From the NCBI GenBank assembly GCA_963619995.1, contig CAVEYT010000001.1, forward strand, positions 1 to 29,458: a DNA stretch of 29,458 nucleotides, in the 5' to 3' direction. The notes under the pieces were generated by a model, which worked only from the letters and a program-made list of their open reading frames with translations, had not been told where the DNA came from and made no database searches. Of the stretch, positions 1 to 21,617 are shown one piece after another. This DNA comes from Acutalibacteraceae bacterium (GTDB lineage: Bacteria; Bacillota; Negativicutes; Veillonellales; Dialisteraceae). The position numbers and the translations under genes were made by a program. Numbering within the stretch: the stretch's first letter is position 1; each line of letters begins with the position of its first letter.

Positions 1-26
1 GTATCATACTGTTTCTTCCTTGTCAA
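1..26 (-). promoter_or_regulatory. Divergent leftward sigma70-type promoter (probable lytic/cro side), truncated by window edge
   Basis: TTGACA on - strand at 26..21; 17 bp later TG-A-TAC... runs off the window; back to back with the repressor promoter. Confidence 0.5.
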
Positions 27-52
27 CAAAAATTGATAAATTTCAAAAAAAG

Positions 53-81
53 TTGATTTTCGGTGAACACGCCTTTATAAT
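53..81 (+). promoter_or_regulatory. Repressor promoter
   Basis: TTGATT (53-58), 17 bp spacer, TATAAT (76-81), then RBS AAAGGAG and ATG at 109. Confidence 0.75.
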
Positions 82-108
82 GAAGAAAACTTGAAAGGAG
101 ATTTTATC

Positions 109-504
109 ATGGAGAAAAATATTCGTCTCGTTGAAATGGGAAAACGCATTAGAAAATTGCGCTTGGAAAAAGAAATGTCTCAAGAGGCTTTGGCACACAT
201 GTGCGGTTATAATTCACGGTCAAGCATTAACAAAATAGAAGCAGGATTAAATGATATCCCTCAATCGAAAATAAAAGCTATTGCGGATGCACTTTCTGTT
301 TCCCCTGCGTGGCTTATGAGCGGAGAGAAAGAGAACGCCGAAACGGGCGGGGCGAGCGCTCCGGCCATCGACCTCGACGAAGCCGCCGTCCTCTCCCAAT
401 ACCGCCGCCTCTCCCCCGAAGGCAAAGAAGAGATCCACAAGCAACTCCGCTACCGCCTCCAAGATGAATACGAACAAAATAAAAAAGAAACCCGACATGC
501 CTAG
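109..504 (+). CDS. XRE-family HTH phage repressor (CI-like, no peptidase domain)
   Basis: RIRKLRLEKEMSQEALAHMCGYNSRSSINKIEAG...IADALSVSPAWLM HTH_3-like motif; C-terminal YRRLSPEGKEEI helix; upstream of integrase. Start moved to ATG 109 by RBS. Confidence 0.9.
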   Translation: MEKNIRLVEMGKRIRKLRLEKEMSQEALAHMCGYNSRSSINKIEAGLNDIPQSKIKAIADALSVSPAWLMSGEKENAETGGASAPAIDLDEAAVLSQYRRLSPEGKEEIHKQLRYRLQDEYEQNKKETRHA

Positions 505-539
505 CCTTCCCCACCCTCTTCCCCTGGGACCGCTTCATC

Positions 540-608
540 TTTGTAAAAACCGCGCTTTTTGCAAACATCATTTTTTATCTTTTCAAAAATGCCGCTTTTT
601 GAAAAGAT
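540..608. repeat. Two related inverted repeats (AAAAA-N6-TTTTT core)
   Basis: TTTGTAAAAA-CCGCGC-TTTTTGCAAA (540-565) and ATCTTTTCAAAAA-TGCCGC-TTTTTGAAAAGAT (577-608, perfect 13-bp arms). Confidence 0.7.
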
Positions 609-629
609 GATTCCCAATCCAATTTTATA

Positions 630-657
630 TTGACAAGTCTGTAAGATGTGGTAGCAT
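630..657 (+). promoter_or_regulatory. Promoter for abi leader RNA/abi gene
   Basis: TTGACA (630-635), 16 bp, TAGCAT (652-657) preceded by TG-G (extended -10). Confidence 0.65.
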
Positions 658-663
658 ACATCT

Positions 664-735
664 AAGCGAACCAGTGACGACTCTGCGGAGAACTCACGGA
701 AGCCTACCAATCTGCGGACTGGTAGGCTTTTCTTT
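664..735 (+). ncRNA. Structured leader/small RNA upstream of abi gene, ending in an intrinsic terminator
   Basis: Hairpin GTGA-CGA-CTC-TGCG-GAG-AAC-TCAC (674-697); terminator AAGCCTACCA...TGGTAGGCTT (700-729) + T-tract; both capped by C(UGCG)G loops. Confidence 0.55.
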
Positions 736-751
736 ATTTGGAGGTAAAAAT

Positions 752-1681
752 ATGAAGCAAATGAAATTCCATTCGGCATGCGAAGCGATTCAACACATGA
801 AAAGCCGTGGTATTACCTTCCGTTATATTTCCGAGGATGGCGCCGCCCGATTCCTCGAGAATAACAATTACTACCACAAAATCATCACATATTGCGAAAA
901 TTACCGAAAAATCCAAGACGGTATTCACGATGGAGAATATGAGCGTCTGGATTTCGCGTATCTTAAAGAGCTTTCAATTATCGATATGCATCTTAGGTAT
1001 CTGCTTATTCAAATGTGCCTTGATATCGAGCACCATATCAAATTGACGCTCATTCACGACGTTTCAAGCAATCCGCAAGAAGACGGATACAATATCGTCA
1101 ATCAATTCGATCCGAGCGGCGCAATTCGAAAACGCGTATTATCCCGCACGAGTAGCAATTACGCCTACGACCTAACAGCAGAATACCGCGAAAGCCTAAA
1201 TTTCCCCATATGGATTTTATGCGACCTTCTCACCTTCGGAGAATTATGCCACCTATACGGGACGTATGTAGATTTATATCCCGGTCGTCGGCTTCCGTCT
1301 CTCAAATTATTGTCGGCAATCCGAAGCATGCGAAACAGTTGCGCTCACAATAATTGTCTGCTGTATCGCCTTTGTTTTAGTAGCCGTCGCGGGAATACGC
1401 CCGTCATGAGTAATATCGTCTCTAAAATCCCTACGATTACAAAGACAAGCAGAAAATTCTACATGAATATTATTCCGATTCATGACTTCGTGGTGGTCTT
1501 ATATGCTTATGCCCAGTTCGTCAAAAGTAAAGGCTTGAAACGAAAACGGAAAAAGGATCTCTGTCGGCTGTTTCATCACCGAATAGCAGAACATGCGGAT
1601 TATTTCACGTCAAATCCGGCATTGATAAGTGCCTACCAATTTTGCACTCGCTTCCTTTTGTTCGTTTTGAAAAAATATTGA
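752..1681 (+). CDS. Abi family (Abi_2 / AbiD-AbiF-like) HEPN RNase, abortive infection protein
   Basis: QHMKSRGITF, FLENNNYY, LSIIDMHLRYLL...CLDIEH, PIWILCDLLTFGELCHLY and HEPN RxxxxH motif RNSCAH; RBS GGAGG before ATG 752; AT-richer than the structural genes. Confidence 0.88.
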   Translation: MKQMKFHSACEAIQHMKSRGITFRYISEDGAARFLENNNYYHKIITYCENYRKIQDGIHDGEYERLDFAYLKELSIIDMHLRYLLIQMCLDIEHHIKLTLIHDVSSNPQEDGYNIVNQFDPSGAIRKRVLSRTSSNYAYDLTAEYRESLNFPIWILCDLLTFGELCHLYGTYVDLYPGRRLPSLKLLSAIRSMRNSCAHNNCLLYRLCFSSRRGNTPVMSNIVSKIPTITKTSRKFYMNIIPIHDFVVVLYAYAQFVKSKGLKRKRKKDLCRLFHHRIAEHADYFTSNPALISAYQFCTRFLLFVLKKY

Positions 1682-1706
1682 CAAACCCCCTGCCTTGTTG
1701 TAGAAT
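1678..1706 (+). promoter_or_regulatory. Near-consensus promoter overlapping the abi stop codon
   Basis: TTGACA (1678-1683, includes the TGA stop), 17 bp, TAGAAT (1701-1706). Confidence 0.8.
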
Positions 1707-1712
1707 ACAGTC

Positions 1713-1777
1713 ACGAGGAAAAAGCCTTCGAGGCTTTTTGGATGGGGCATGTTACGGCATACCCCTTATTTTTATTT
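1713..1777 (+). ncRNA. Putative AbiF-associated small RNA (candidate RNA antitoxin)
   Basis: Own promoter; hairpin AAAAAGCCT-TCG-AGGCTTTTT (1719-1739); hairpin GGGG-C-ATGT-TACG-GCAT-A-CCCC (1744-1765) followed by T-rich tract; no RBS-led ORF. Confidence 0.55.
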
Positions 1778-1780
1778 GTG

Positions 1781-1823
1781 GGCGCGGTGTTTGTCAATAC
1801 GACAAAGCAACCGCGCCTTTTCT
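1781..1823 (+). terminator. Intrinsic terminator-like hairpin between abi module and integrase
   Basis: GGCGCGGT-G-TTTGTC-AATAC-GACAAA-GCA-ACCGCGCC followed by TTTTCT. Confidence 0.6.
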
Positions 1824-1830
1824 ATTTCTA

Positions 1831-1916
1831 CTATTTTGCCGACGTCGGCAAAATAGCAAAGTTCGTACCAATACGCACTATTTCAGTTGTTGCAAATTTT
1901 ACAACAACTGAAATAG
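1831..1916. repeat. Pair of long palindromes upstream of integrase
   Basis: Perfect 26-bp palindrome CTATTTTGCCGACGTCGGCAAAATAG (1831-1856); 15-bp arms CTATTTCAGTTGTTG-N9-CAACAACTGAAATAG (1878-1916). Both start CTATTT and end AAATAG-CAA. Confidence 0.85.
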
Positions 1917-1958
1917 CAATATTTATAAAATGAATATTGCTACAGAAAGGAGAAAGAG

Positions 1959-3029
1959 ATGGAGTACAATTTCAGCGTTAGAAAGCGCGGTAACAAATGG
2001 CACTTAGTGTGCAGTTATAAAACGGCCGACGGCTGGAAGCAAAAAACAAAAGGCGGCTTCGCGCTTCGCAAGGACGCTATGGCTTGGGAGGGAAAGGAAT
2101 CTCTGATAAAGGAAATAAAAAAAGCCGAGGCCGTTTCCCCGACGTTTCAAAATATCACCCTTCGCGGCTTTCTTGAGTTTTACATCGCCGAGCACCCCAC
2201 GCTTGCCTACAATACCATTGCCACCTATAGGACGTCTATTGACGGCTTGCCATATATCGCCAATAAACCGATAAAAGATATTTCTTTGCTCGCCATCATC
2301 AGCGCTCTTCGCGCGTTGCAGCATATGCCCGGTAAATTGAAAACGGCGCGAACATTATTAAAAACGCTTTTTTCCGCTGCCGTCATGTACAACGCCATCG
2401 CGAAAAATCCGCTGGTTGATTATAAATTTCCGCAAATAAAAAGTGACAAAGAGAGCAAGCGCCTCCGCGTCTTTACGGACGAGCAAATCGCCGACGTGAT
2501 GAGACGCGGCGCGGATGACGAGCCGTCCTTAATAATGGCCATCGCCGCTGCCACCGGTATGCGAGCCGGTGAGATACTCGGTCTTAAATGGAGCGACATC
2601 GATTTTGTCGCAAGCCGCCTGACGGTCAATAAGCAGTGGAAACGGATCGGGCGCGAAAACGGAAAAACGATATACGGCTTTGGCAACGTCAAAAGCAAAA
2701 ACGGAAACCGCACTCTATTTATACCGCCGTCCTTGATGCGTGTCCTGATAGAATATAAGGCAAGCCATCCCATCAATATCAGTGGCCGCATTGCAACAAT
2801 AGACACCACGTCGAGCTTAAATTATCGCGTCGAAACTCGCTACCCCAACCACTCGATGCATGACTTCCGGCACACATTCGGCACGCGTTTATCCTTGACG
2901 TGTCCAAACGTCTCTATCCTCGCGGCAACTCTCGGCGACAGCGAAGAAACAGTGGTTAAGACGTACTTGAACTACAGCGAAGAAATGCGAAAGGCGGCCG
3001 AAACGCACATAGCGGAAATGTTCTCATGA
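1959..3029 (+). CDS. int: Phage integrase, tyrosine recombinase with N-terminal arm-binding domain
   Basis: TGMRAGEILGLKWSDIDF (Arg), VKSK (Lys), HDFRHTF (HxxR), LGDS, KTYL (Tyr); N-terminal RKRGNKW...WKQKTKGGF; RBS AAGGAG. Confidence 0.96.
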   Translation: MEYNFSVRKRGNKWHLVCSYKTADGWKQKTKGGFALRKDAMAWEGKESLIKEIKKAEAVSPTFQNITLRGFLEFYIAEHPTLAYNTIATYRTSIDGLPYIANKPIKDISLLAIISALRALQHMPGKLKTARTLLKTLFSAAVMYNAIAKNPLVDYKFPQIKSDKESKRLRVFTDEQIADVMRRGADDEPSLIMAIAAATGMRAGEILGLKWSDIDFVASRLTVNKQWKRIGRENGKTIYGFGNVKSKNGNRTLFIPPSLMRVLIEYKASHPINISGRIATIDTTSSLNYRVETRYPNHSMHDFRHTFGTRLSLTCPNVSILAATLGDSEETVVKTYLNYSEEMRKAAETHIAEMFS

Positions 3030-3031
3030 AA

Positions 3032-3257
3032 TTTATTGCCACTTTTATTGCCACTTCCGTGCGAAATCGCATAAACAAGCGGAAAATTAGGTGTTTGATT
3101 ATATTTTTTAATTATATGGCATCTCGGCAAAAAAAGCTACAAAAAGATATATTTTGCTATTTTTCGGACAAAAATGCCTTTTTGTGTCTTTTGGCGCGTC
3201 AGGAAAAACTATAAAAAGCTAAATTTCATTTGCCACTTTTTTGCCACTTTTGACATT
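3032..3257. other. Probable attP: integrase arm-type repeats flanking an AT-rich core region
   Basis: TTTATTGCCACT twice in tandem (3032-3055); TTGCCACTT at 3230-3238 and 3241-3249; degenerate TTGACATT at 3250-3257; directly after the int stop, with phage genes on both sides. Confidence 0.7.
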
Positions 3258-3275
3258 AAAAGGGCAACGAAACGC

Positions 3276-3310
3276 AAAAATTAAAAGCGCCCATCTCTGG
3301 ACGCTTTTAA
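3276..3310 (-). terminator. Intrinsic terminator of the accessory (acr) operon
   Basis: TTAAAAGCG-C-CCA-TCTC-TGG-A-CGCTTTTAA inverted repeat (3281-3310); T-run on - strand; 27 bp after the stop at 3338. Confidence 0.7.
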
Positions 3311-3337
3311 CTCGCTTACTCATGCACTATTTCGCTT

Positions 3338-3745
3338 TTATTCTTCCGGAATGTCTATTCCGGCCTTCCGGAGTTCCTCTTTCTGCCAATCTCTCAGGTC
3401 GAATTTCGGCATCGGCTCGTCGCCGTAGTAAATCGCCGGTGTGATATTGATGATCGAAAGTGTGCTGTCGTATATGTCGTGATATTCTTCGCCGTCGTAT
3501 TCCCAGGTGGTGCCTTCTTCGATATCTTCTTCCGTCGCCGGTGTCGCTTCTACGAGCCAGACTTGCGCCCACTCTTCCTCGCCGCGTCTTTGCGCGTCGG
3601 CCATGTGGCGGATTTCAAATCTCGTGAGACGAGTCTGCACCATATCAAGCGCGCGCTCTTCCAAGAGACCTTCGCCGACGACTGCATGTGATTCTGTGGC
3701 GCCTGACATTTCGGCGAAAATTGTGAAAACTTTTTTGCTTGCCAT
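3338..3745 (-). CDS. Acidic hypothetical protein (135 aa), candidate anti-defence protein
   Basis: RBS AAAGGAG + ATG 3745 (MASKKVFTIF...); E/D-rich; last gene of the operon containing the AcrIC5-like gene. Confidence 0.75.
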   Translation of the reverse strand: MASKKVFTIFAEMSGATESHAVVGEGLLEERALDMVQTRLTRFEIRHMADAQRRGEEEWAQVWLVEATPATEEDIEEGTTWEYDGEEYHDIYDSTLSIINITPAIYYGDEPMPKFDLRDWQKEELRKAGIDIPEE

Positions 3746-3768
3746 TTTGTTTACTCCTTTACGAAAAC

Positions 3769-3966
3769 TTAATCCGATTCTTTTTGCTGTCCATACAGCC
3801 GCTCCATTCCGGCGCGAGTGACGAGCCATGTCCGGCCGGACTTGCGGAACTCCTCAGGACGGAAGCCGTTTTTCACGCGGCCTTGGCAGTTTTGCTTCAG
3901 CGCGTTTGGCGTAATACCCCAGCGTTCGCCCGCCTCTAGTGTTGTCATCACATCCTCAAGCTCCAC
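3769..3966 (-). CDS. Small helix-turn-helix protein (65 aa), candidate Aca-like autoregulator
   Basis: GGAGG + GTG 3966; LEDVMTTLEAGERWGITPNALKQNC...FRKSGRTWLVTRAGMERLYG resembles excisionase/MerR-like winged HTH. Confidence 0.8.
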   Translation of the reverse strand: MELEDVMTTLEAGERWGITPNALKQNCQGRVKNGFRPEEFRKSGRTWLVTRAGMERLYGQQKESD

Positions 3967-4099
3967 GCCACAGCCTCCATCCGATATATCCACCAATCAC
4001 AAGGCCGCTGATCAGTGCTTCGACGGCCACTTTGTCCCACGCGAGCGCTGACAATCCAAGCACTGACGCAGCAATAACCACTACATCACATGTTTTCAT
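3956..4099 (-). CDS. Small membrane protein (47 aa; not in ORF track)
   Basis: RBS AAGGAGG + ATG 4099; MKTCDVVVIAASVLGLSALAWDKVAVEALISGLVIGGYIGWRLWRGA*; two hydrophobic segments; stop overlaps HTH gene start. Confidence 0.7.
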   Translation of the reverse strand: MKTCDVVVIAASVLGLSALAWDKVAVEALISGLVIGGYIGWRLWRGA

Positions 4100-4112
4100 T
4101 TCGCCCCTCCTT

Positions 4113-4298
4113 TTAATCGACGCGAAATTCTTCGCCGTATTTTTCTTTGTGCGCTTTGCAATACGCTTCTAAAAATTCTTCTTCGCTGCAGGGCGCCATT
4201 TCGCGGTGCAGCTCTTCGCGAATATCATCATCCATTAAGGCCTCCGCCGCGACGTACGAAATTTCCTGTCCATTGAGATTCACGATTTTGTTTGCCAT
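4113..4298 (-). CDS. acrIC5: AcrIC5-like anti-CRISPR protein (61 aa)
   Basis: LNGQEI...AA..LMD..REELH...EFLEAY..AH..KYGEEF.V matches end to end the AcrIC5 sequence as I recall it (LNGQQIDFDAAVNLMDAELREELH...EFLDAYVQAHAAKFDGEEFQV); acidic; RBS AGGAGG. Confidence 0.8.
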   Translation of the reverse strand: MANKIVNLNGQEISYVAAEALMDDDIREELHREMAPCSEEEFLEAYCKAHKEKYGEEFRVD

Positions 4299-4317
4299 TT
4301 TGTTTTCCTCCTACTTA

Positions 4318-4417
4318 TGGTATAATGAGGGTGTTGAGAGGGCTCCTTGCCCTCTCTTCCCTCGGCTTTTCTCATCGCTCACTTATTTGCGCTTGCGGCG
4401 ATGGAAGAGCCCTTTTT
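4318..4417 (+). ncRNA. Putative antisense RNA (type I antitoxin-like) with promoter and terminator
   Basis: TG-G-TATAAT (4318-4326); hairpin GAGAGGGC-TCCTT-GCCCTCTC (4336-4356); long hairpin GGCTTTTC-T-CATCGC...GCGATG-GAAGAGCC ending 4410 + CTTTTT; overlaps the 3' end of the 39-aa ORF. Confidence 0.6.
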
Positions 4418-4502
4418 CGTTGAGCCACATCGTTATGATCGGTGAGGCTAACGTTGCAATGATTGATAGAAACCATTGCCAATCGGCTTTTTCGATTTGC
4501 AT
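4383..4502 (-). CDS. Small hydrophobic peptide (39 aa), type I toxin-like (not in ORF track)
   Basis: RBS AGGAGGTG + ATG 4502; MQIEKADWQWFLSIIATLASPIITMWLNEKGLFHRRKRK*; one hydrophobic helix and a basic tail. Confidence 0.7.
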   Translation of the reverse strand: MQIEKADWQWFLSIIATLASPIITMWLNEKGLFHRRKRK

Positions 4503-4536
4503 TTTTTATCACCTCCTCTCTTTCCTTTCTGTACCT

Positions 4537-4564
4537 ATTATACCACACTAGGGGTATGTGTCAA
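4537..4564 (-). promoter_or_regulatory. Strong promoter of the accessory operon with operator-like inverted repeat
   Basis: - strand TTGACA (4564-4559), 16 bp, TG-G-TATAAT (-10 at 4542-4537); ATACC-N8-GGTAT at 4540-4557; AT-rich upstream region. Confidence 0.8.
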
Positions 4565-4648
4565 GCGCTTTTTGAAATTTTTTTATAAAATTTTTTCGCT
4601 TATCCATGCGCTTTTTGCGCTTTGGTAAAAATTTTTTATATTTTTCGC

Positions 4649-4696
4649 AATAGAAAAACGGCACAGGTCATTTCTAACCTGTGCCGTTTTTCTATT
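4649..4696. terminator. Terminator ending the late/lysis operon (potentially bidirectional)
   Basis: Perfect 20-bp inverted repeat AATAGAAAAACGGCACAGGT-N8-ACCTGTGCCGTTTTTCTATT. Confidence 0.85.
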
Positions 4697-5093
4697 TTAC
4701 ACACGCCCACACGACCGCTCCAATGGCGACCGCTGCCCATATGTTCCGCTGCCTATTCTTGACGGTCTCCTTGCGTTTCTGCTCTTTCTCGTATTCTTGC
4801 AAGGATGCTTCGGCTTTCTGCAATGAGTTCACCGTCGCTTCGTTCGAGTCGCTCAAGAGTTTCAGCCGTGCGTTGGCTGTCGCTAACTGCGCCTGCAGCG
4901 TCTTCAATGATTCCTCTTTGGTTTTCGAGTTCTCGGCTAGCGTTTCTAAGTTCCGCTCGAGCGTCGCCAGTTCCTCCTCCGTCACTTGGTACGTCATCGC
5001 GTAGGCCGGGGGATAGCAGGACGGCAGCAGCAAGCAGAAGAGTAACAAGGCAAAAGCTGAGAGCAAGAGTTTTCGGTGATTTAACCATCTCAT
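4692..5093 (-). CDS. Spanin-like protein: signal peptide, coiled coil, C-terminal hydrophobic anchor (133 aa)
   Basis: MRWLNHRKLLLSAFALLLFCLLLPSC (lipobox-like) or AYA SPase I site; heptad-rich middle; IWAAVAIGAVVWAC at the C-terminus; follows the endolysin. Confidence 0.6.
   Translation of the reverse strand: MRWLNHRKLLLSAFALLLFCLLLPSCYPPAYAMTYQVTEEELATLERNLETLAENSKTKEESLKTLQAQLATANARLKLLSDSNEATVNSLQKAEASLQEYEKEQKRKETVKNRQRNIWAAVAIGAVVWACVK
4753..5088 (-). CDS. i-spanin (Rz)-like protein nested in a different frame (111 aa)
   Basis: N-terminal hydrophobic helix LALSFCLVTLLLAAAVLL, Gly-rich linker, helical charged C-terminus; ATG 10 nt from the shared GAGGAGG. Confidence 0.5.
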   Translation of the reverse strand: MVKSPKTLALSFCLVTLLLAAAVLLSPGLRDDVPSDGGGTGDARAELRNASRELENQRGIIEDAAGAVSDSQRTAETLERLERSDGELIAESRSILARIRERAETQGDRQE

Positions 5094-5103
5094 GCTGCCC
5101 TCC

Positions 5104-5685
5104 TCAGTGCCACTCATTCATGTCGTAGTAGGCGCCGTCGATTTCATAGGCGTCGGTGTACTGCCAGCCTTTCAGGGTGTTTCCCGGGAAATATTCCGCA
5201 AAGTCGCAAGTCCGGTCGTACTGCGCGCACCAATATGGAACGTAGTCTGCTAGGGCTTTGACGTCGATATTGTCGATAAAGGTGTAGAGGCTTGCGTAGA
5301 TGCCGGCGCTGTAATCGCGATGATTGCAGGCCGTGATAAAGGCGGAGCATATCGCGGTGACGTCGGCTTTTTTGAGGCGCAGGACGTCGTCTTCTTCGAC
5401 GTCGTACCAGATGCCGAGCTTCGGTGCGCCGTGGCCGAGCTCCTCGATGGCGTTTAGGACGACTTCGGCTTCTTCTTTCGCGCGGTCCGTGGTTTTGGCG
5501 TGGGTGTAGCAGTAAACGCCCCACAGGAGGCCGTGCGCTTCGGCTGCGGCGATTTGGTCGGCGTAAAGATCGGCCAGGTCGCGACCTTCGGAAATTTTGA
5601 CGATGACTCCCTCGACGTGATGCGTCTTGATCACGCTATCCCAGTCAATTTGGTCATTCCATCCGGAAATATCCATGACTTTCAT
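5104..5685 (-). CDS. Endolysin, GH25 muramidase (catalytic domain only)
   Basis: MDISGWNDQIDW, VIVKISEG, GVYCY, WYDVE, GIYAS, WCAQY, GWQYTD, DMN motifs; RBS AAGGAG before ATG 5685. Confidence 0.92.
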   Translation of the reverse strand: MKVMDISGWNDQIDWDSVIKTHHVEGVIVKISEGRDLADLYADQIAAAEAHGLLWGVYCYTHAKTTDRAKEEAEVVLNAIEELGHGAPKLGIWYDVEEDDVLRLKKADVTAICSAFITACNHRDYSAGIYASLYTFIDNIDVKALADYVPYWCAQYDRTCDFAEYFPGNTLKGWQYTDAYEIDGAYYDMNEWH

Positions 5686-5701
5686 TTTTTTTCGCTCCTT
5701 T

Positions 5702-6022
5702 CTATTTTTCTTTTGCTTTGACTTCCGCCGCGTCCGGCCGCCCGTCTCGATTTTTGTCCACATGGTAAACCGATAGAAACGTGACGGCAGCGACAACGGA
5801 CACGGATGTGTACTCTCTAAAGAAACTGATGAGTATCGTGATGTCCGGCGTTCCGGTCATGTACCACTGATAGCTCCAGCCCGCAATAAGTAAGAGGGTG
5901 ATGATGGCTAGGCCGGAGCCGTACAGGCAGACAATACGCATGCTGTCTTTAGCGGTGCCTCGCTTGGCCTTGGTGATGTTTCCGGCGGCTTTGGTGAGGT
6001 GGCCTTTGAGCTTGTCTAGCAT
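5702..6022 (-). CDS. Putative holin (two hydrophobic segments)
   Basis: Hydrophobic IVCLYGSGLAIITLLLIAGW and SVSVVAAVTFLSVY; charged C-terminus; directly upstream of the endolysin. Confidence 0.6.
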   Translation of the reverse strand: MLDKLKGHLTKAAGNITKAKRGTAKDSMRIVCLYGSGLAIITLLLIAGWSYQWYMTGTPDITILISFFREYTSVSVVAAVTFLSVYHVDKNRDGRPDAAEVKAKEK

Positions 6023-6348
6023 GACTCCTCCTTTAGCTTCCTTTTCAGGAGCGGCCGGATGTCTTCTATCATCTGTGTCGCTTGGCCATTTCCACCCAGG
6101 CTGTGGTATCGTTCGTAGATTTCCTCCGCCAGGTCTTCGTCCTCAAGGCCGATGTAGCCTTTGGCTAAAGACTCTAGGTACAGCTCTCTCAGGTTGCATT
6201 TCAAGAGCGTCCGCAATGACTCTTCGATGAGCGCTCTGTTCTTGCGGAGACTCTGCACTTTGTTCCAAAGGAAACCGACGGCGATACCCAGCAAGGTCGG
6301 GATGTAATGGATAATGCCCGCAAGCAAGGCTTCCATGTTCTCCGTCAT
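6016..6348 (-). CDS. Holin-like phage membrane protein (YxxLGGNG family)
   Basis: Single N-terminal TM helix; IYERYHSLGGNG motif typical of Firmicutes phage lysis-cassette proteins. Confidence 0.65.
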   Translation of the reverse strand: MTENMEALLAGIIHYIPTLLGIAVGFLWNKVQSLRKNRALIEESLRTLLKCNLRELYLESLAKGYIGLEDEDLAEEIYERYHSLGGNGQATQMIEDIRPLLKRKLKEESC

Positions 6349-6584
6349 TCAGCCTTCTCCAACTCTTCCAGCTCTTTCTGCGCCGCGTTGATTTTGTCTC
6401 TTATGCTCTGACGGTCTGCCAGCAAGGTATCCGTGTCGTAGGGGTCTTTCTCGCCCTTGAGCCGTGCCTCGTAAGTTTTCACGATTTTATAATCGCCGAT
6501 TGCCGAGTTTTCGCCCGAAAGCTCCGACTTGAGATTGATGATTTCCTGCTGAAGGATTAAGATTTTTCTTTGCTTTTCGTCCAT
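6345..6584 (-). CDS. Small helical phage protein (DYKIVK motif), possibly tail-fibre associated
   Basis: RBS AAGGAG; GDYKIVK...RQSIRDKIN pattern; overlaps RT 3' end; ATGA overlap with the next gene. Confidence 0.65.
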   Translation of the reverse strand: MDEKQRKILILQQEIINLKSELSGENSAIGDYKIVKTYEARLKGEKDPYDTDTLLADRQSIRDKINAAQKELEELEKAE

Positions 6585-7729
6585 GATGATTGTCTCCTTT
6601 TGTAAAAATCCATAGACTTTAGAGTTTTGTAGGCGTTATCCCGTTTCTTATCGCCTCGCCACGCGCGGTACTGGTTTTCGTACTCTTCGGCGGTCATGTC
6701 TCCCGCCGTGACTTTCTGGGCGAGTTTCTTGAGTTTGCGCCGCTCTCTTTTGGTGACGTCTTTCGGGATTTTCTTGATGATTTTTCCCGTCGACGTCAGG
6801 ATGTAGCGGGTTTTCAGCCACGTGAAGCCGTGACTGAGCTTGACTATCTGCGTTTTCTTTCGGTTGACATAGATGCCGAGCCGCTTGGCAAGTGTCTCGA
6901 TATCCCGCAGTAGGTCGCGAAGGAACACTTTATCTGGGTGCAGGACGATTCGGTCGTCCATGTAGGCGTCGTAGCAGTGTACCGATTTGACTGTTTTCAC
7001 GTATTGGTCAATCAGCGTCGGATACAAGATGCCGATGATTTGAGATATCGGTGCGCCGATGCCTAGAGATTTCTGCATCATTCTGTCACCCGTCAAGCGT
7101 TCCTTTGGAATTTTGACGTATTCCAGCGAGTTAAAAACTTCGTCCATGAGGTCATGCTCCGTATAGGAAATGTCCACCTCGTAGGTCTTTAGGATTTTCT
7201 TCGCCAGATTCGTCAGTTCCTCGTCTCGGAAAATAGTCTCGAGCTGTCTGATGGCGTCCTCGTGTCGGATGTTGTCAAAGTACTTTGAGAAATCGACAAT
7301 GAGCGCATAGCCTTCTATACCGTAGCGCCGATAGTGCCAGCGTAAATGCTCCTCGAAACGGCGTCTCGTAAAAGATAGCCCTCTGCCTTTCAGCCCTGCG
7401 CCGTTGTCATAGATGATGTGCTCTTTGACTTTTGGAATTATCACGCCGTCGCACAAGGCGTGCTGTAATACCGCGTCTCGCGGGGTCATGGATTTCACGA
7501 GCCGCCTGTGTCCGTTTTCGTTGATTTCAAAAACGGAGCCTTCCTGCGGTTCGTAAGTTCCCGTCTCGATTTCTCTTTTTAGCTTGGCGATTTCCGAAAG
7601 CCGATTCAAGAGAAATGCCTGTGATTTGTACTTCCACCCTGAGGATTTCGCCAATTTCTTAGCGGCTTCAAGGTATTGATTTACTGTGATGTTCATGATG
7701 TTTGAGATATGCCACGCCGATAGCGGCAA
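6557..7729 (-). CDS. DGR reverse transcriptase (start uncertain: TTG 7729 or ATG 7696)
   Basis: RDAVLQHAL, GKG-like GRG, VDFSKYFDNIRH, DGR-type LGIGAPISQ motif, catalytic YMDD, GFTWLK; no maturase or endonuclease extension. Confidence 0.95.
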   Translation of the reverse strand: MPLSAWHISNIMNITVNQYLEAAKKLAKSSGWKYKSQAFLLNRLSEIAKLKREIETGTYEPQEGSVFEINENGHRRLVKSMTPRDAVLQHALCDGVIIPKVKEHIIYDNGAGLKGRGLSFTRRRFEEHLRWHYRRYGIEGYALIVDFSKYFDNIRHEDAIRQLETIFRDEELTNLAKKILKTYEVDISYTEHDLMDEVFNSLEYVKIPKERLTGDRMMQKSLGIGAPISQIIGILYPTLIDQYVKTVKSVHCYDAYMDDRIVLHPDKVFLRDLLRDIETLAKRLGIYVNRKKTQIVKLSHGFTWLKTRYILTSTGKIIKKIPKDVTKRERRKLKKLAQKVTAGDMTAEEYENQYRAWRGDKKRDNAYKTLKSMDFYKRRQSSWTKSKEKS

Positions 7730-7941
7730 TATCCGTAGATAGCCGCGTCATGGCATTTGTTTACCATTTGGAAGGATACACACTCATTCCCTGCTCCGAT
7801 GTCTGACTTTTAGTCTCTTGATATCGTCTGAGAAGCGGGCGCACGCCCCCGACATTCGAGGCGTTGTTGTTGTTGGCATTGCCATTCTCGCTGGCATTGG
7901 CGAAATTCGACGAGTTCGCGATTAGCGTGTACCCCATGATA
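7730..7941 (-). ncRNA. DGR template RNA region (5' flank + TR + spacer)
   Basis: Non-coding gap between avd and RT containing TR; 5' flank 7935-7925 can pair with spacer 7783-7773. Confidence 0.75.
7836..7921 (-). repeat. DGR template repeat (TR)
   Basis: 86-bp ungapped match to 8532-8617; reads GCG AAC TCG TCG AAT TTC GCC AAT GCC AGC GAG AAT GGC AAT GCC AAC AAC AAC AAC GCC TCG AAT GTC GGG GGC GTG CGC CCG; 10 AAY codons, 22 adenines. Confidence 0.96.
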
Positions 7942-8469
7942 TTATTCCAATTTCGCCCTTCTTTTATTGTCTGACTTGCGCCAGCCCTTGAGTAGAGCGA
8001 TTTCCCTGTCTACTGCTTCTGCATACTGTATTAGCTTTTCTGCCTTGACTGGCAAGATGTCAGCCGCCAGCTCTAATTCCTGTTTGAGACTTTCGCAATC
8101 TGCAATCGCTAAATCTTGCGCGTTTCTCCGTAGGTCGGCTTCGGCTTTCGTCGTCGCCCAGATGGTGTAAGCCTGCGTGATGTGTTGCATCATGCGGCTA
8201 AGGCTCTTTAGGATGCCGTCTCGGACGTGCTCTATCATCCAGAGGGGATAATCGTCTATCACTTTTGTTTCGCCGTATTTTTCGAGCAGTTCGGCAAAAG
8301 TAATGGCGTCTTGCGGCTCCCATTTCTTCGTGCAAAATCTCGGCTCGCGGATTCTTGGCTTTACGCCAAAATCTCTGCCCATCAGAAATATGAGTTGCCT
8401 TCTGAGTTTCACGGCGTTCATGTAAAATTCGAGCTTAGACAAGCTGCGGTTTCGTGCTAATACAGACAT
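7942..8469 (-). CDS. avd: DGR accessory variability determinant (Avd-like four-helix bundle)
   Basis: MSVLARNRSLSKLEFY; RRNAQDLAIADCESLKQEL; EIALLKGWRKSD; lies between target and TR; RBS AAAGGAG. Confidence 0.88.
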   Translation of the reverse strand: MSVLARNRSLSKLEFYMNAVKLRRQLIFLMGRDFGVKPRIREPRFCTKKWEPQDAITFAELLEKYGETKVIDDYPLWMIEHVRDGILKSLSRMMQHITQAYTIWATTKAEADLRRNAQDLAIADCESLKQELELAADILPVKAEKLIQYAEAVDREIALLKGWRKSDNKRRAKLE

Positions 8470-8486
8470 GTTGTCTCCTTTCTAAA

Positions 8487-8505
8487 GCGCCCCACAAGGG
8501 GGCGC
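8487..8505 (-). promoter_or_regulatory. DGR target-recognition hairpin/cruciform downstream of VR
   Basis: GCGCCCC-CTTGT-GGGGCGC (7-bp GC stem), 8 nt after the target stop codon. Confidence 0.8.
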
Positions 8506-8513
8506 AGACAGGG

Positions 8514-9407
8514 TCAGCGGAGCAGGAAATACGGGCGCACGCCCCCGACATTGGAGGCGCCGCTGATGATGGCACAGCCATACTCGCTGGCATTGGCGAA
8601 ACCCGACAAGTTCGCGACGTCTCGGAGCCAGCACCAATAGGCTCTTGTAAAGTTCTGACCGTATCTAAAGATGGCAAGCTGTTTATTGCAATCGCCTTCT
8701 TCTTGCCCCGAGGACGCCATCGGGTGATTGCCATACATCATTGCCTGATTGGGGATGTTGACCTTGACCGTTGTCCACAGTGAGCCGCTCCAATCCCAGT
8801 AGGCGCTGCCCGTCCAGCATGCTCCTGCGGATGAGGCGGCGTTGGCGTTCATGCCGTTTGTCAGTATTTCCTTGTGCTCTAAAACGTGTGCGCTTCCGAA
8901 GGCGTTCACGATTCCCGTGACATACAGCGGTATCGTGGTTTTCCACATATAGCTTCCCTGATAGCCGCCAGCCGTGGTGTTCGTGCTGTTCATATAGCTC
9001 GTGCCGAGATTGTTCTCTGGTATCATCACGACATGGTGCGCCGTGGTTTCCGTACTGCCGCGGTGCAGGTGATAGTCCAAATCTGCCACGAGCCACTTTA
9101 CGTTGCTGTAGGTCGTGCCGTTGACCGTCACGGATTTCGTGATGTAGTCGCCAGGGAAAATATCATCAAAGGTACCAGCGGCGATGGCAGTACTCATGCC
9201 GCCGGAGTTAAAGTAACTTGTCAAGTCTTTGCCACGGTAGATGCTGTTGTGTGATGCCGCCGTTTTGGGCAAAATTTCAGCCAAAAGCTGTGTCTTTAAT
9301 GCTTCAAACGTGATGGCCTGCGTTTCATTCGTGCCTTCCGCCAGAAACAGGTCGGTGTCTTCCAGTGTTGCCACTTCGGGCAAATTGGTGATTGGGATTC
9401 CTGCCAT
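8514..9407 (-). CDS. DGR target protein, putative receptor-binding protein with C-terminal C-type-lectin-like variable domain
   Basis: Ends YWCWLRDV-[VR]-GGVRPYFLLR*, typical of CLec-fold DGR targets; last gene of the tail fibre cluster. Confidence 0.9.
   Translation of the reverse strand: MAGIPITNLPEVATLEDTDLFLAEGTNETQAITFEALKTQLLAEILPKTAASHNSIYRGKDLTSYFNSGGMSTAIAAGTFDDIFPGDYITKSVTVNGTTYSNVKWLVADLDYHLHRGSTETTAHHVVMIPENNLGTSYMNSTNTTAGGYQGSYMWKTTIPLYVTGIVNAFGSAHVLEHKEILTNGMNANAASSAGACWTGSAYWDWSGSLWTTVKVNIPNQAMMYGNHPMASSGQEEGDCNKQLAIFRYGQNFTRAYWCWLRDVANLSGFANASEYGCAIISGASNVGGVRPYFLLR
8532..8617 (-). repeat. DGR variable repeat (VR)
   Basis: 12 mismatches vs TR, 10 at TR adenines (AAT>GGT, AAT>TAT, AAT>TGT, AAC>ATC x2, AAC>AGC, AAC>GGC); GC-rich 3' end. 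Confidence 0.96.
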
Positions 9408-20171: not shown

Positions 20172-21617
20172 TTATGCGAAAAGCGTACTGAAATAATCGG
20201 GGTCGTACTCGATGACGTTCTCGATCTCCCGCGCCGGCGTCGGCGGCGTAAAGTACGTGTGAAACTTGATAATCCCGTCCAAAAGATTCGTCGTCGCGTT
20301 TTCATCCTCGCGGAACTCCACCCGCGCACCGAGAAGCGCACCGGACGCCACATAGGAATTGAGCCGAATGTTTTCGCTGTCGACAATCGTCTGAATGAGC
20401 CGCTTCGTGATAGGCTTGTCCACCTTCGTCCAGTATGTCTGAATGAACGTCTGCGCCTGCCAGTAGAACATCCGCTTGATGGAAATGAAAGCGTCCTTCG
20501 CGTCCGTATTCGACGGATAGCAACCCGTCCGATTGCCCCACGCCTTCCAGCCGCCAATGAAATTGAGCGCCGTCACGACGCCCTGGCCGTTCAAGTAATT
20601 CGCATTCTCCGGTCCCAGAATGATTTCGTTTCCGTCCGCGTCACACGTCCCCTGAATATTCATCGTCTTATTGGACGGCGATTCATACGGCACATCGTCA
20701 TTCGACGCATCGACGGAGGAAATCACGCCCATCATGTGGACGGACATGTGATATACCACATCGCCGTTTCTCACCATCGGCCAGCAGACGATTTCATTCT
20801 CGCCGACGTAGTTATTGGAATTTTTCCAAGAGGAAACTTCCGTGTACTTCGTGACTTCATCCGCCGGAATGTCCACGAGCACCATCGCTTTAAAATGCTC
20901 ATTGATATTGAGCGCTTTCGCTTTCATGACGGATTCCACCGCCGGGTTTCCGCTGTAGCCCGGCGCTAGCACCAAGCCCGGGACAAGGCCGGTGATGGGG
21001 AATACTTGATTCAGACATTCCAGCCCTTTCGCCTCGCCCGTCGTCGTGTCGATGCCGCCGATGATATCGGAATACGTCACGGCCGACGCGTCCAGCGCGT
21101 CATACGTCACATACGCATTCTTCGCTTTCGCCAAGGCGCCGCCCGTCAAAATGCTGATAATCAGCACGCCGTCATCGTCATAGGCTGCCGTGTAATCGGT
21201 ATCGACGACGCAGGTTGCGCCCTCCGCCGATACTTTTACGACGAGCGTATCCAGCAATACGGCATCTTCCACCGTCGCCGCACCGTCCGTGATTTCCACG
21301 GTCGCGGTCTTTTTCGCTTTATGCTTCTTCGAATCCAGTACGTTCACCAATACGACGGGACCGTACCCGTACAACGCGAACTGCGAATACATCGCCTCGC
21401 ACAATGTGTACTTTTCCCAATCGGCGCTGTAGCCGAAAGCCGCGACGGCCTCGGCGTAGCTGTAGCAAAGTGTCGGGCGATTCGCCGGCGCGGCATCACT
21501 GGCCAGATGCACCGGCGCCGTGCCGAAAATGACAGGAAGTCCCGCTGTCGTATTCACGGCCGGGACAATGCTCGTCGGCAATTCAGACACGTATACGCCA
21601 TGTTTATACCCGCTCAT
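20172..21617 (-). CDS. Contractile tail sheath protein
   Basis: YKHGVYVSE, GTAPV, YESPSNK, ANYLNGQGV, WGNRT, PPTPAREI. Confidence 0.94.
   Translation of the reverse strand: MSGYKHGVYVSELPTSIVPAVNTTAGLPVIFGTAPVHLASDAAPANRPTLCYSYAEAVAAFGYSADWEKYTLCEAMYSQFALYGYGPVVLVNVLDSKKHKAKKTATVEITDGAATVEDAVLLDTLVVKVSAEGATCVVDTDYTAAYDDDGVLIISILTGGALAKAKNAYVTYDALDASAVTYSDIIGGIDTTTGEAKGLECLNQVFPITGLVPGLVLAPGYSGNPAVESVMKAKALNINEHFKAMVLVDIPADEVTKYTEVSSWKNSNNYVGENEIVCWPMVRNGDVVYHMSVHMMGVISSVDASNDDVPYESPSNKTMNIQGTCDADGNEIILGPENANYLNGQGVVTALNFIGGWKAWGNRTGCYPSNTDAKDAFISIKRMFYWQAQTFIQTYWTKVDKPITKRLIQTIVDSENIRLNSYVASGALLGARVEFREDENATTNLLDGIIKFHTYFTPPTPAREIENVIEYDPDYFSTLFA

Follow-up and report, generated by a model that had tools for sequence, protein, structure and literature searches.

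The locus described here is closest to systems built around the anti-CRISPR protein AcrIC5. According to the available part of PMC7913775, AcrIC5 blocks CRISPRi and inhibits the type I-C systems of both P. aeruginosa and E. lenta, and its orthologs are broadly distributed in Proteobacteria, Firmicutes, and Actinobacteria. A homolog from a Bifidobacterium prophage inhibits type I-C on its own, as stated in the accessible text of PMC10651486. In the sections of the literature available to us, two members of the family block type I-C, the Pseudomonas one at the DNA-binding step. AcrIC5 was described as a monomer that binds the DNA-binding site (PMC10478522, in part), and an AlphaFold3 model of the AcrIC5-Cas8c complex placed it at the PAM site with an ipTM of 0.92 (bioRxiv 10.1101/2025.06.06.658234, in part). 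The neighbourhood of an AcrIC5 homolog has earlier served as the starting point for the discovery of AcrIB2 (bioRxiv 10.1101/2023.05.22.541795, in part). With regard to regulation of anti-CRISPR loci, the operator of Aca11 is reported as an inverted repeat between -35 and -10 in the available text of PMC12282945.

The window analysed in this work is the whole stretch of 29,458 nucleotides, which corresponds to bases 1-29458 of a 33,350-bp contig (C1). The contig belongs to a 1.53-Mb bin (G000) of 246 contigs with a completeness of 83%. The window contains phage genes for terminase, portal, capsid, tape measure, baseplate, tail tube, and lysis, together with a diversity-generating retroelement, an integrase, an Abi_2 gene, and a repressor. 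On the minus strand, a complete ORF of 61 codons runs from an ATG at 4298 to a stop at 4113, while the plus strand of 4113-4298 is interrupted by stops. The ORF is preceded by the ribosome-binding site AGGAGG (4307..4312, minus strand). The encoded 61-aa protein is acidic, as the first-pass annotation had stated, with a pI of 4.52 and 16 D/E residues against 7 K/R.

The same annotation had proposed that this protein aligns with AcrIC5 over its full length, and had suggested a profile and sequence search. The searches confirmed the proposal. Pfam family PF22147 matched the protein with 87.2 bits against a cut-off of 27 (E 8.1e-25, model positions 1-53 of 53). A phmmer search of the PDB gave 7YHR (Anti-CRISPR protein Type I-C5) with an E value of 8.2e-12 over residues 6-60, and the second-best of the seven matches listed had an E value of 0.35. 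The alignment to 7YHR contains 29 identities in 56 columns, as counted by hand, and all of the motifs that it had named (LNGQ, AA..LMD, REELH, EFL.AY..AH..K, and GEEF.V) are present in it. An AlphaFold2 model built from 52 sequences had a pLDDT of 89.0 and a beta-beta-alpha-alpha-alpha topology. In a Foldseek search of this model, 7YHR (TM 0.87, rmsd 1.2) was the sole match at E<=0.001 among the 136 listed at E<=10. The NCBIfam search gave no match, and PHROGs gave a weak one only (phrog_4785, E 0.0095). The ORF 4298..4113 thus encodes an AcrIC5-family protein.

Homologs were plentiful: 53 proteins were collected, and homologs were also found at 32 viral loci, in 9 of 401 genomes of the class, and in 7 phage records. 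All 53 candidates contain PF22147, and their median acidic excess is 9, the same as in the window protein. At least seven database proteins are 93-97% identical to it and have intact frames. In the order, acrIC5 was present in 2 of 222 genomes. The literature search, itself not exhaustive, met no anti-CRISPR in Negativicutes among the papers listed. Members of this gene family have been described before and occur widely, and a specialist would find the gene itself unsurprising; with this finding, AcrIC5 is also recorded from a temperate phage whose lineage is diderm, of Firmicutes type, and has type I-C systems.

Several observations were made among the homologs. Two unannotated ones, with 60% and 52% identity, are found in single-stranded DNA microviruses (MG945373.1, L148:2501-2674, and KT264799.1), and the one in MG945373.1 sits between the VP2 and VP4 genes. 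At six loci (L047:1745-2194, L114, L115, L116, L015:3611-4201, and L032:3815-4126) the AcrIC5 domain forms the C-terminus of a longer fusion protein of 103-196 aa. In G464:C5 (L113:1293-2555), the homolog lies amid three acidic ORFs of 63, 149, and 98 aa with no assigned function. In many small phage contigs (14-16 kb viral contigs L001-L004, L006-L009, and similar ones) the acrIC5 homolog is the first gene, within about 230 bp of the contig end.

The acrIC5 gene belongs to a minus-strand operon with the order promoter, 39-aa peptide, acrIC5, 47-aa membrane protein, HTH_59 protein, and 135-aa orphan. The operon is bounded by a 20-bp hairpin (4649-4696) and by a terminator-like hairpin at its end (3313-3278). 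The sigma70-type promoter at 4564..4537 (TTGACA-16-TATAAT plus TG) matches the consensus at 12 of 12 positions. It was the best of 16 sites in the region 1-8000, where shuffled sequences averaged 9.1 sites, and it lies 238 bp upstream of the acrIC5 ATG, with the peptide gene in between. The consensus promoter and the 20-bp hairpin claimed earlier are therefore both real features of the sequence. The hairpin is a perfect inverted repeat with an 8-nt loop (4649-4668/4677-4696), located after the lysis genes. The terminator scan did not list it; it is likely the terminator of the late operon.

The 39-aa peptide (4383..4502, minus strand), which the first-pass annotation had not included, is hydrophobic with a basic tail. 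It has a homolog in L082, and a Pfam search with it gave no family. On the opposite strand, an extended -10 site, TGGTATAAT (4318-4326), precedes a candidate antisense RNA of about 85 nt (4333-4417, within 4318..4417, plus strand). This putative RNA has two hairpins and a U-run, overlaps the 3' end of the peptide gene, and folds with an MFE of -38.9 kcal/mol (z -5.3). An Rfam search returned 26 matches, every one below the gathering score. Related modules likewise have extended -10 sites on the antisense strand. By its anatomy, the peptide is a candidate type I toxin-like protein. A Racr element beside acrIC5 was sought with five I-C repeats and the II-A repeat as queries and was rejected: the best sites had at least 15 mismatches of 33-36 positions in the region 3000-4800 and at least 13 anywhere in the contig.

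Comparison with related modules showed where acrIC5 entered the operon. The closest module lacking acrIC5, in G160:C8 (L126), is collinear with that of the window. The two align at 68% (206/303) in the upstream flank and at 73% (240/327) in the downstream flank. Because both flank alignments end at the same three bases of G160:C8 (1131-1133), behind a shared AGGAGG, the segment of about 200 bp at 4100..4298 (minus strand) is taken to be an insertion. Besides acrIC5, it brought in a new ribosome-binding site that now serves the membrane gene; in the empty module, this gene is served by the AGGAGG that precedes acrIC5 in the window. The peptide, the antisense site, the 47-aa membrane gene (3956..4099, minus strand; a constant member of the module), and the HTH gene recur across the 31 loci examined. 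Relatives of the HTH protein occur in 127 of 222 genomes of the order, and acrIC5 is present in 1 of 33 HTH loci, the window's own. The phage would thus have gained acrIC5 through an insertion that made use of a ribosome-binding site already present in a widely occurring module of the order. The classic acr-locus layout claimed earlier was not found in this operon, which is not acr-first and in which acrIC5 was inserted behind a peptide/antisense unit. A clean insertion of a single gene into an existing expression module shows how phages acquire such genes.

Two genes downstream of acrIC5, on the same strand, lies the gene of the HTH_59 protein (3769..3966; PF20038, E 5.2e-29). AcaFinder (bioRxiv 10.1101/2022.08.29.505781, in the part available) uses guilt-by-association criteria for Aca proteins, with an HTH of <150 aa, and on account of this rule the HTH_59 protein is a candidate Aca-like autorepressor. 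A PDB search with it gave no relative at E<1. No literature devoted to PF20038 was found, and in the partial sources available HTH_59 appears only in connection with a Parageobacillus phage. Neighbours of HTH_59 in Listeria plasmids include no annotated acr. Both copies of acrIC5 in the order are co-oriented with an HTH_59 gene and lie within 1 kb of it, and they occur in genomes of different families; in the second copy, in G061:C28, the HTH_59 is part of a fusion. HTH_59 as a general partner of AcrIC5 was considered and rejected outside the order, as it was near acrIC5 in 2 of 44 loci, both of this order. The other 42 loci scanned lack it, and several of them have HTH_3 or RHH neighbours. 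The G061:C28 locus also shows a run of small ORFs, several of them acidic, at a prophage-like end (L127:3860-6134). A Pfam search with three neighbours there (101, 73, and 48 aa) gave no match, and these are Acr candidates.

A candidate operator for the HTH_59 protein is the dyad ATACC-N8-GGTAT (4540..4557), which lies between -35 and -10. It is present in a single copy in the 1.53-Mb bin, where about 1.2 are expected by chance. The same dyad was found in 5 of 31 HTH loci, all with an HTH protein at least 80% identical, and the N8 differs in each; a sixth locus of this identity has only 140 bp of upstream sequence. The window dyad was matched by 44 of 300 shuffles, which alone is not significant, and shared descent also explains its recurrence. 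Other HTH subgroups have different dyads at the same place, such as a repeat with 8-bp arms that five related loci share and that 0 of 300 shuffles matched, and several HTH loci have no dyad at the promoter position. We lean towards a regulator as the function of the HTH_59 protein. PHROG 2655 labels its family as excisionase, and this label and the position of the gene fit an excisionase, a function which we consider rather improbable. The regulator is favoured because relatives of the protein are located far from att sites, occur in several copies per genome, and are also found as fusions.

The first-pass annotation had placed acrIC5 next to attP. Its proximity to the integrase was confirmed; the attP site itself is inferred. 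The tyrosine integrase gene (1959..3029, plus strand) is directly followed, 3' of its stop, by an attP-like region (3029..3249) at which the lysis genes and the integrase converge. In this region, paired arm-type repeats TTGCCACTT surround an AT-rich stretch. They start at 3036, 3048, 3230, and 3241, two on either side, and represent four of the five copies in the window. The left pair is conserved behind the end of a related integrase gene in G008:C54. A DNA search of 53 genomes besides G000 with the region 2900-3330 revealed neither a crossover core nor attB. It gave one real match, to G008:C54 at a contig end, the others being at chance level. The 14-mers shared with three other contigs of the bin were considered as an att core and found unconvincing. 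Since convergent lysis and integrase genes together with paired repeats are what an intact attP would be expected to show, the contig looks like an unintegrated form of the phage.

Other features were noted in the phage region. The diversity-generating retroelement (6557-8617) consists of a reverse transcriptase (6557-7729), a template repeat (7836-7921), Avd (7942-8469), and a variable repeat at the end of a 297-aa gene (8532-8617). Ten of the 12 mismatches between the repeats fall on template adenines. An abortive-infection gene of the Abi_2 family (PF07751, 701-1681) lies between the repressor and the integrase, with a promoter-like site at 630-657, and two palindromes (1831-1856 and 1878-1916) lie in the interval from the Abi gene to the start of the integrase. 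After the endolysin, a nested out-of-frame gene pair (4692-5117/4753-5088) resembles the Rz/Rz1 spanin arrangement, which fits a host with an outer membrane.

The bin contains LpxC, and its phage and cas genes are of Firmicutes type, from which we infer that the host belongs to Negativicutes; the numbers of families and genera would fit Veillonellales. In the parts of the contig examined no host genes were found, so the assignment of the phage to this host rests on binning and on a CRISPR spacer. The spacer comes from a complete type II-A system (cas9-cas1-cas2-csn2 with an array) on contig C76 of the bin, where Cas9 is encoded at C76:2285-6424. It occupies C76:142-171 and matches positions 20258-20287 of the window, in a 481-aa gene beside the tail tube gene, at 30 of 30 positions, which is expected by chance at about 1e-12. 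This was the only spacer to match the phage contig among the 119 II-A and 95 I-C spacers collected. None of the 95 I-C spacers, taken from five genomes of the genus, had a match. No second protospacer that could serve to define a PAM was found among the 119 II-A spacers or by an array search, and no exact copy of the protospacer was found in viral contigs. The spacer ties the phage to the host population and shows pressure from Cas9, not from type I-C. Two explanations would fit: immune cells coexist with infected ones in the population, or the phage evades Cas9, whether by escape or by inhibition. A lone II-A repeat was also observed 689 bp from the rest of the array (G000:C91:4438-5126, L042), with short ORFs in between.

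From acrIC5, the first-pass annotation had inferred a host with a type I-C system, and it had suggested a check of candidate hosts for such systems and for spacers against the phage. For this bin the proposal holds: I-C cas genes are present. The sole spacer found against the phage is of type II-A. The genes cas3, cas5c, and cas8c are located on G000:C141 and reach the contig end, where the assembly is broken. In G000:C141:1-1901 (L045), cas8c is represented by two non-identical overlapping pieces across a gap of 10 N. Both pieces are closest to proteins of G007 and G008 (62-69%), which suggests that the assembly joined two sequences here, not that the gene is broken. In this bin of 83% completeness, neither cas7, nor an I-C cas1, nor I-C repeats were assembled, and with cas8c in two pieces an intact type I-C system in this host is putative. 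Cas8c was found in 7 of 12 genomes of the genus (6 of 11 besides the bin), and I-C arrays were present at 5 of 6 genus loci examined. In the order, 32 of 151 genomes have Cas8c (31 of 150 besides the bin). As a general step, the conclusion from acrIC5 to a type I-C host is weak. Of the eight other genomes of the class with an AcrIC5 homolog, none of the five tested has Cas8c, nor was it found at the loci of three named carrier genomes, so carriage alone does not imply such a host. With Cas8c in about 21% of the genomes of the order, its absence from other carriers is unremarkable.

By analogy with the described members of its family, the protein is probably an acidic DNA mimic directed at Cas8c, blocking DNA binding by type I-C. 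The strong promoter of host type at 4564..4537 would express the five-gene operon early after injection, independently of the late genes. The predicted binding site of the protein is the PAM-reading surface of Cas8c, and phage DNA would as a result no longer be bound by the type I-C Cascade. The HTH_59 protein may then reduce expression of the operon by way of the dyad in the spacer of the promoter.

A reading that we consider quite unlikely is that the protein is a working AcrIC5 in general, ineffective on the divergent Cas8c allele of this host and of use when the phage meets other strains, or other species, of the genus. The N-terminal piece of Cas8c in the bin has GEDDSKN where many relatives have DxKGK, and it also differs from most relatives at the GAQSSG motif. 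The bin has two overlapping cas8c sequences that differ from each other, and the lack of I-C spacers to the phage (0/95) would fit as well. However, the equivalence of the GEDDSKN loop to the motif GVDAKGK was assigned by eye, and that motif is taken from a contact that is only predicted. Four of six other sequences of the genus likewise vary at this putative PAM loop. Moreover, the Pseudomonas AcrIC5 inhibited systems with cas genes of 35-55% identity, according to the available part of PMC7913775. Still less probable is an AcrIC5 fold that mimics DNA towards a different target, for example a restriction enzyme, a DNA-binding protein of the host, or a Cascade of some other subtype. The window protein and the Pseudomonas protein that was tested differ at about half of their residues, all eight other carrier genomes tested lack Cas8c, and homologs are found in very different phages, two microviruses among them. 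Yet the core motifs are kept in the window protein, the host lineage has type I-C, and both tested family members inhibit type I-C (PMC7913775 and PMC10651486, in the parts available). That acrIC5 is a silent or near-neutral passenger, with antisense pairing or repression keeping the second cistron off, is barely plausible: its rarity in the order would fit, and so would its place downstream of the peptide gene and the candidate antisense RNA, but the frame is intact, the ribosome-binding site is strong, the promoter matches the consensus fully, the hairpin has no U-tract after it in the sense direction, and the nearly identical database proteins also have intact frames. Inhibition of type I-C through Cas8c thus stays our preferred reading.

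The last gene of the operon (3338..3745, minus strand) encodes an acidic orphan of 135 aa with a pI of 4.36. The start regions of the orphan and acrIC5 agree at 19 of 20 nt. Two close relatives were found, and a third at 58%. Searches of Pfam, PHROG, and the PDB gave no match, Atlas matches were at 0.84 or lower, and a model built from four sequences had a pLDDT of 50.6 and was unusable. By its genomic context, the orphan is a candidate second inhibitor or counter-defence gene. A broader interpretation, which we regard as doubtful, is that the whole module regulates itself and serves as a landing pad into which counter-defence genes are inserted, with HTH_59 as a new Aca on subgroup-specific dyads and the orphan as a new inhibitor. 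If this were true, the orphan would possibly inhibit the II-A Cas9, which has a perfect spacer against the phage, and the variable cargo beside HTH_59, in more than half of the genomes of the order (127/222), would be a source of new anti-CRISPRs. As a reusable lead, HTH_59 may mark counter-defence loci in the order, with the orphan as a concrete candidate.

In type I toxin-antitoxin modules of Firmicutes prophages, such as TxpA/RatA and BsrG/SR4, an antisense RNA overlaps the 3' end of the toxin gene. The window unit resembles these in its short hydrophobic peptide with a basic tail, its putative convergent extended -10 promoter, and its candidate hairpin RNA overlapping the 3' end, whereas its peptide heads a longer operon and has no Pfam match, nor the RNA an Rfam match above the gathering score. 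With the acr-aca operons (Aca1-Aca13), the locus shares short co-oriented genes, an Acr homolog, and a downstream HTH protein of <150 aa, and with that of Aca11 the position of the putative operator dyad between -35 and -10 (PMC12282945, in part). In contrast to these operons, the HTH_59 module mostly occurs without acrIC5. Its PF20038 domain is not one of the HTH families given for Aca proteins in the sources as available (HTH_24, HTH_3, HTH_29, KORA, DUF1870, and YdaS), a distinction on which the Aca-Pfam table of AcaFinder may bear. The acrIC5-racrIC1 locus of a Bifidobacterium pseudocatenulatum prophage (PMC10651486, in part) is likewise a short phage operon with its own promoter and a non-Pseudomonas homolog; compared with the description available there, the window locus is without the solitary CRISPR repeat. 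Compared with AcrIC5 of Pseudomonas delhiensis (WP_089394111.1, PDB 7YHR, PF22147), the window gene comes from a diderm host lineage of Firmicutes type, is linked to HTH_59 and not to Aca1, and stands second, behind a peptide/antisense unit. The window protein and its 51 aligned homologs have the motif LMDDDIREELH..PC, whereas 7YHR is without the Pro-Cys. Both proteins are phage-encoded and strongly acidic, are about 60 aa long, and have the same predicted fold.
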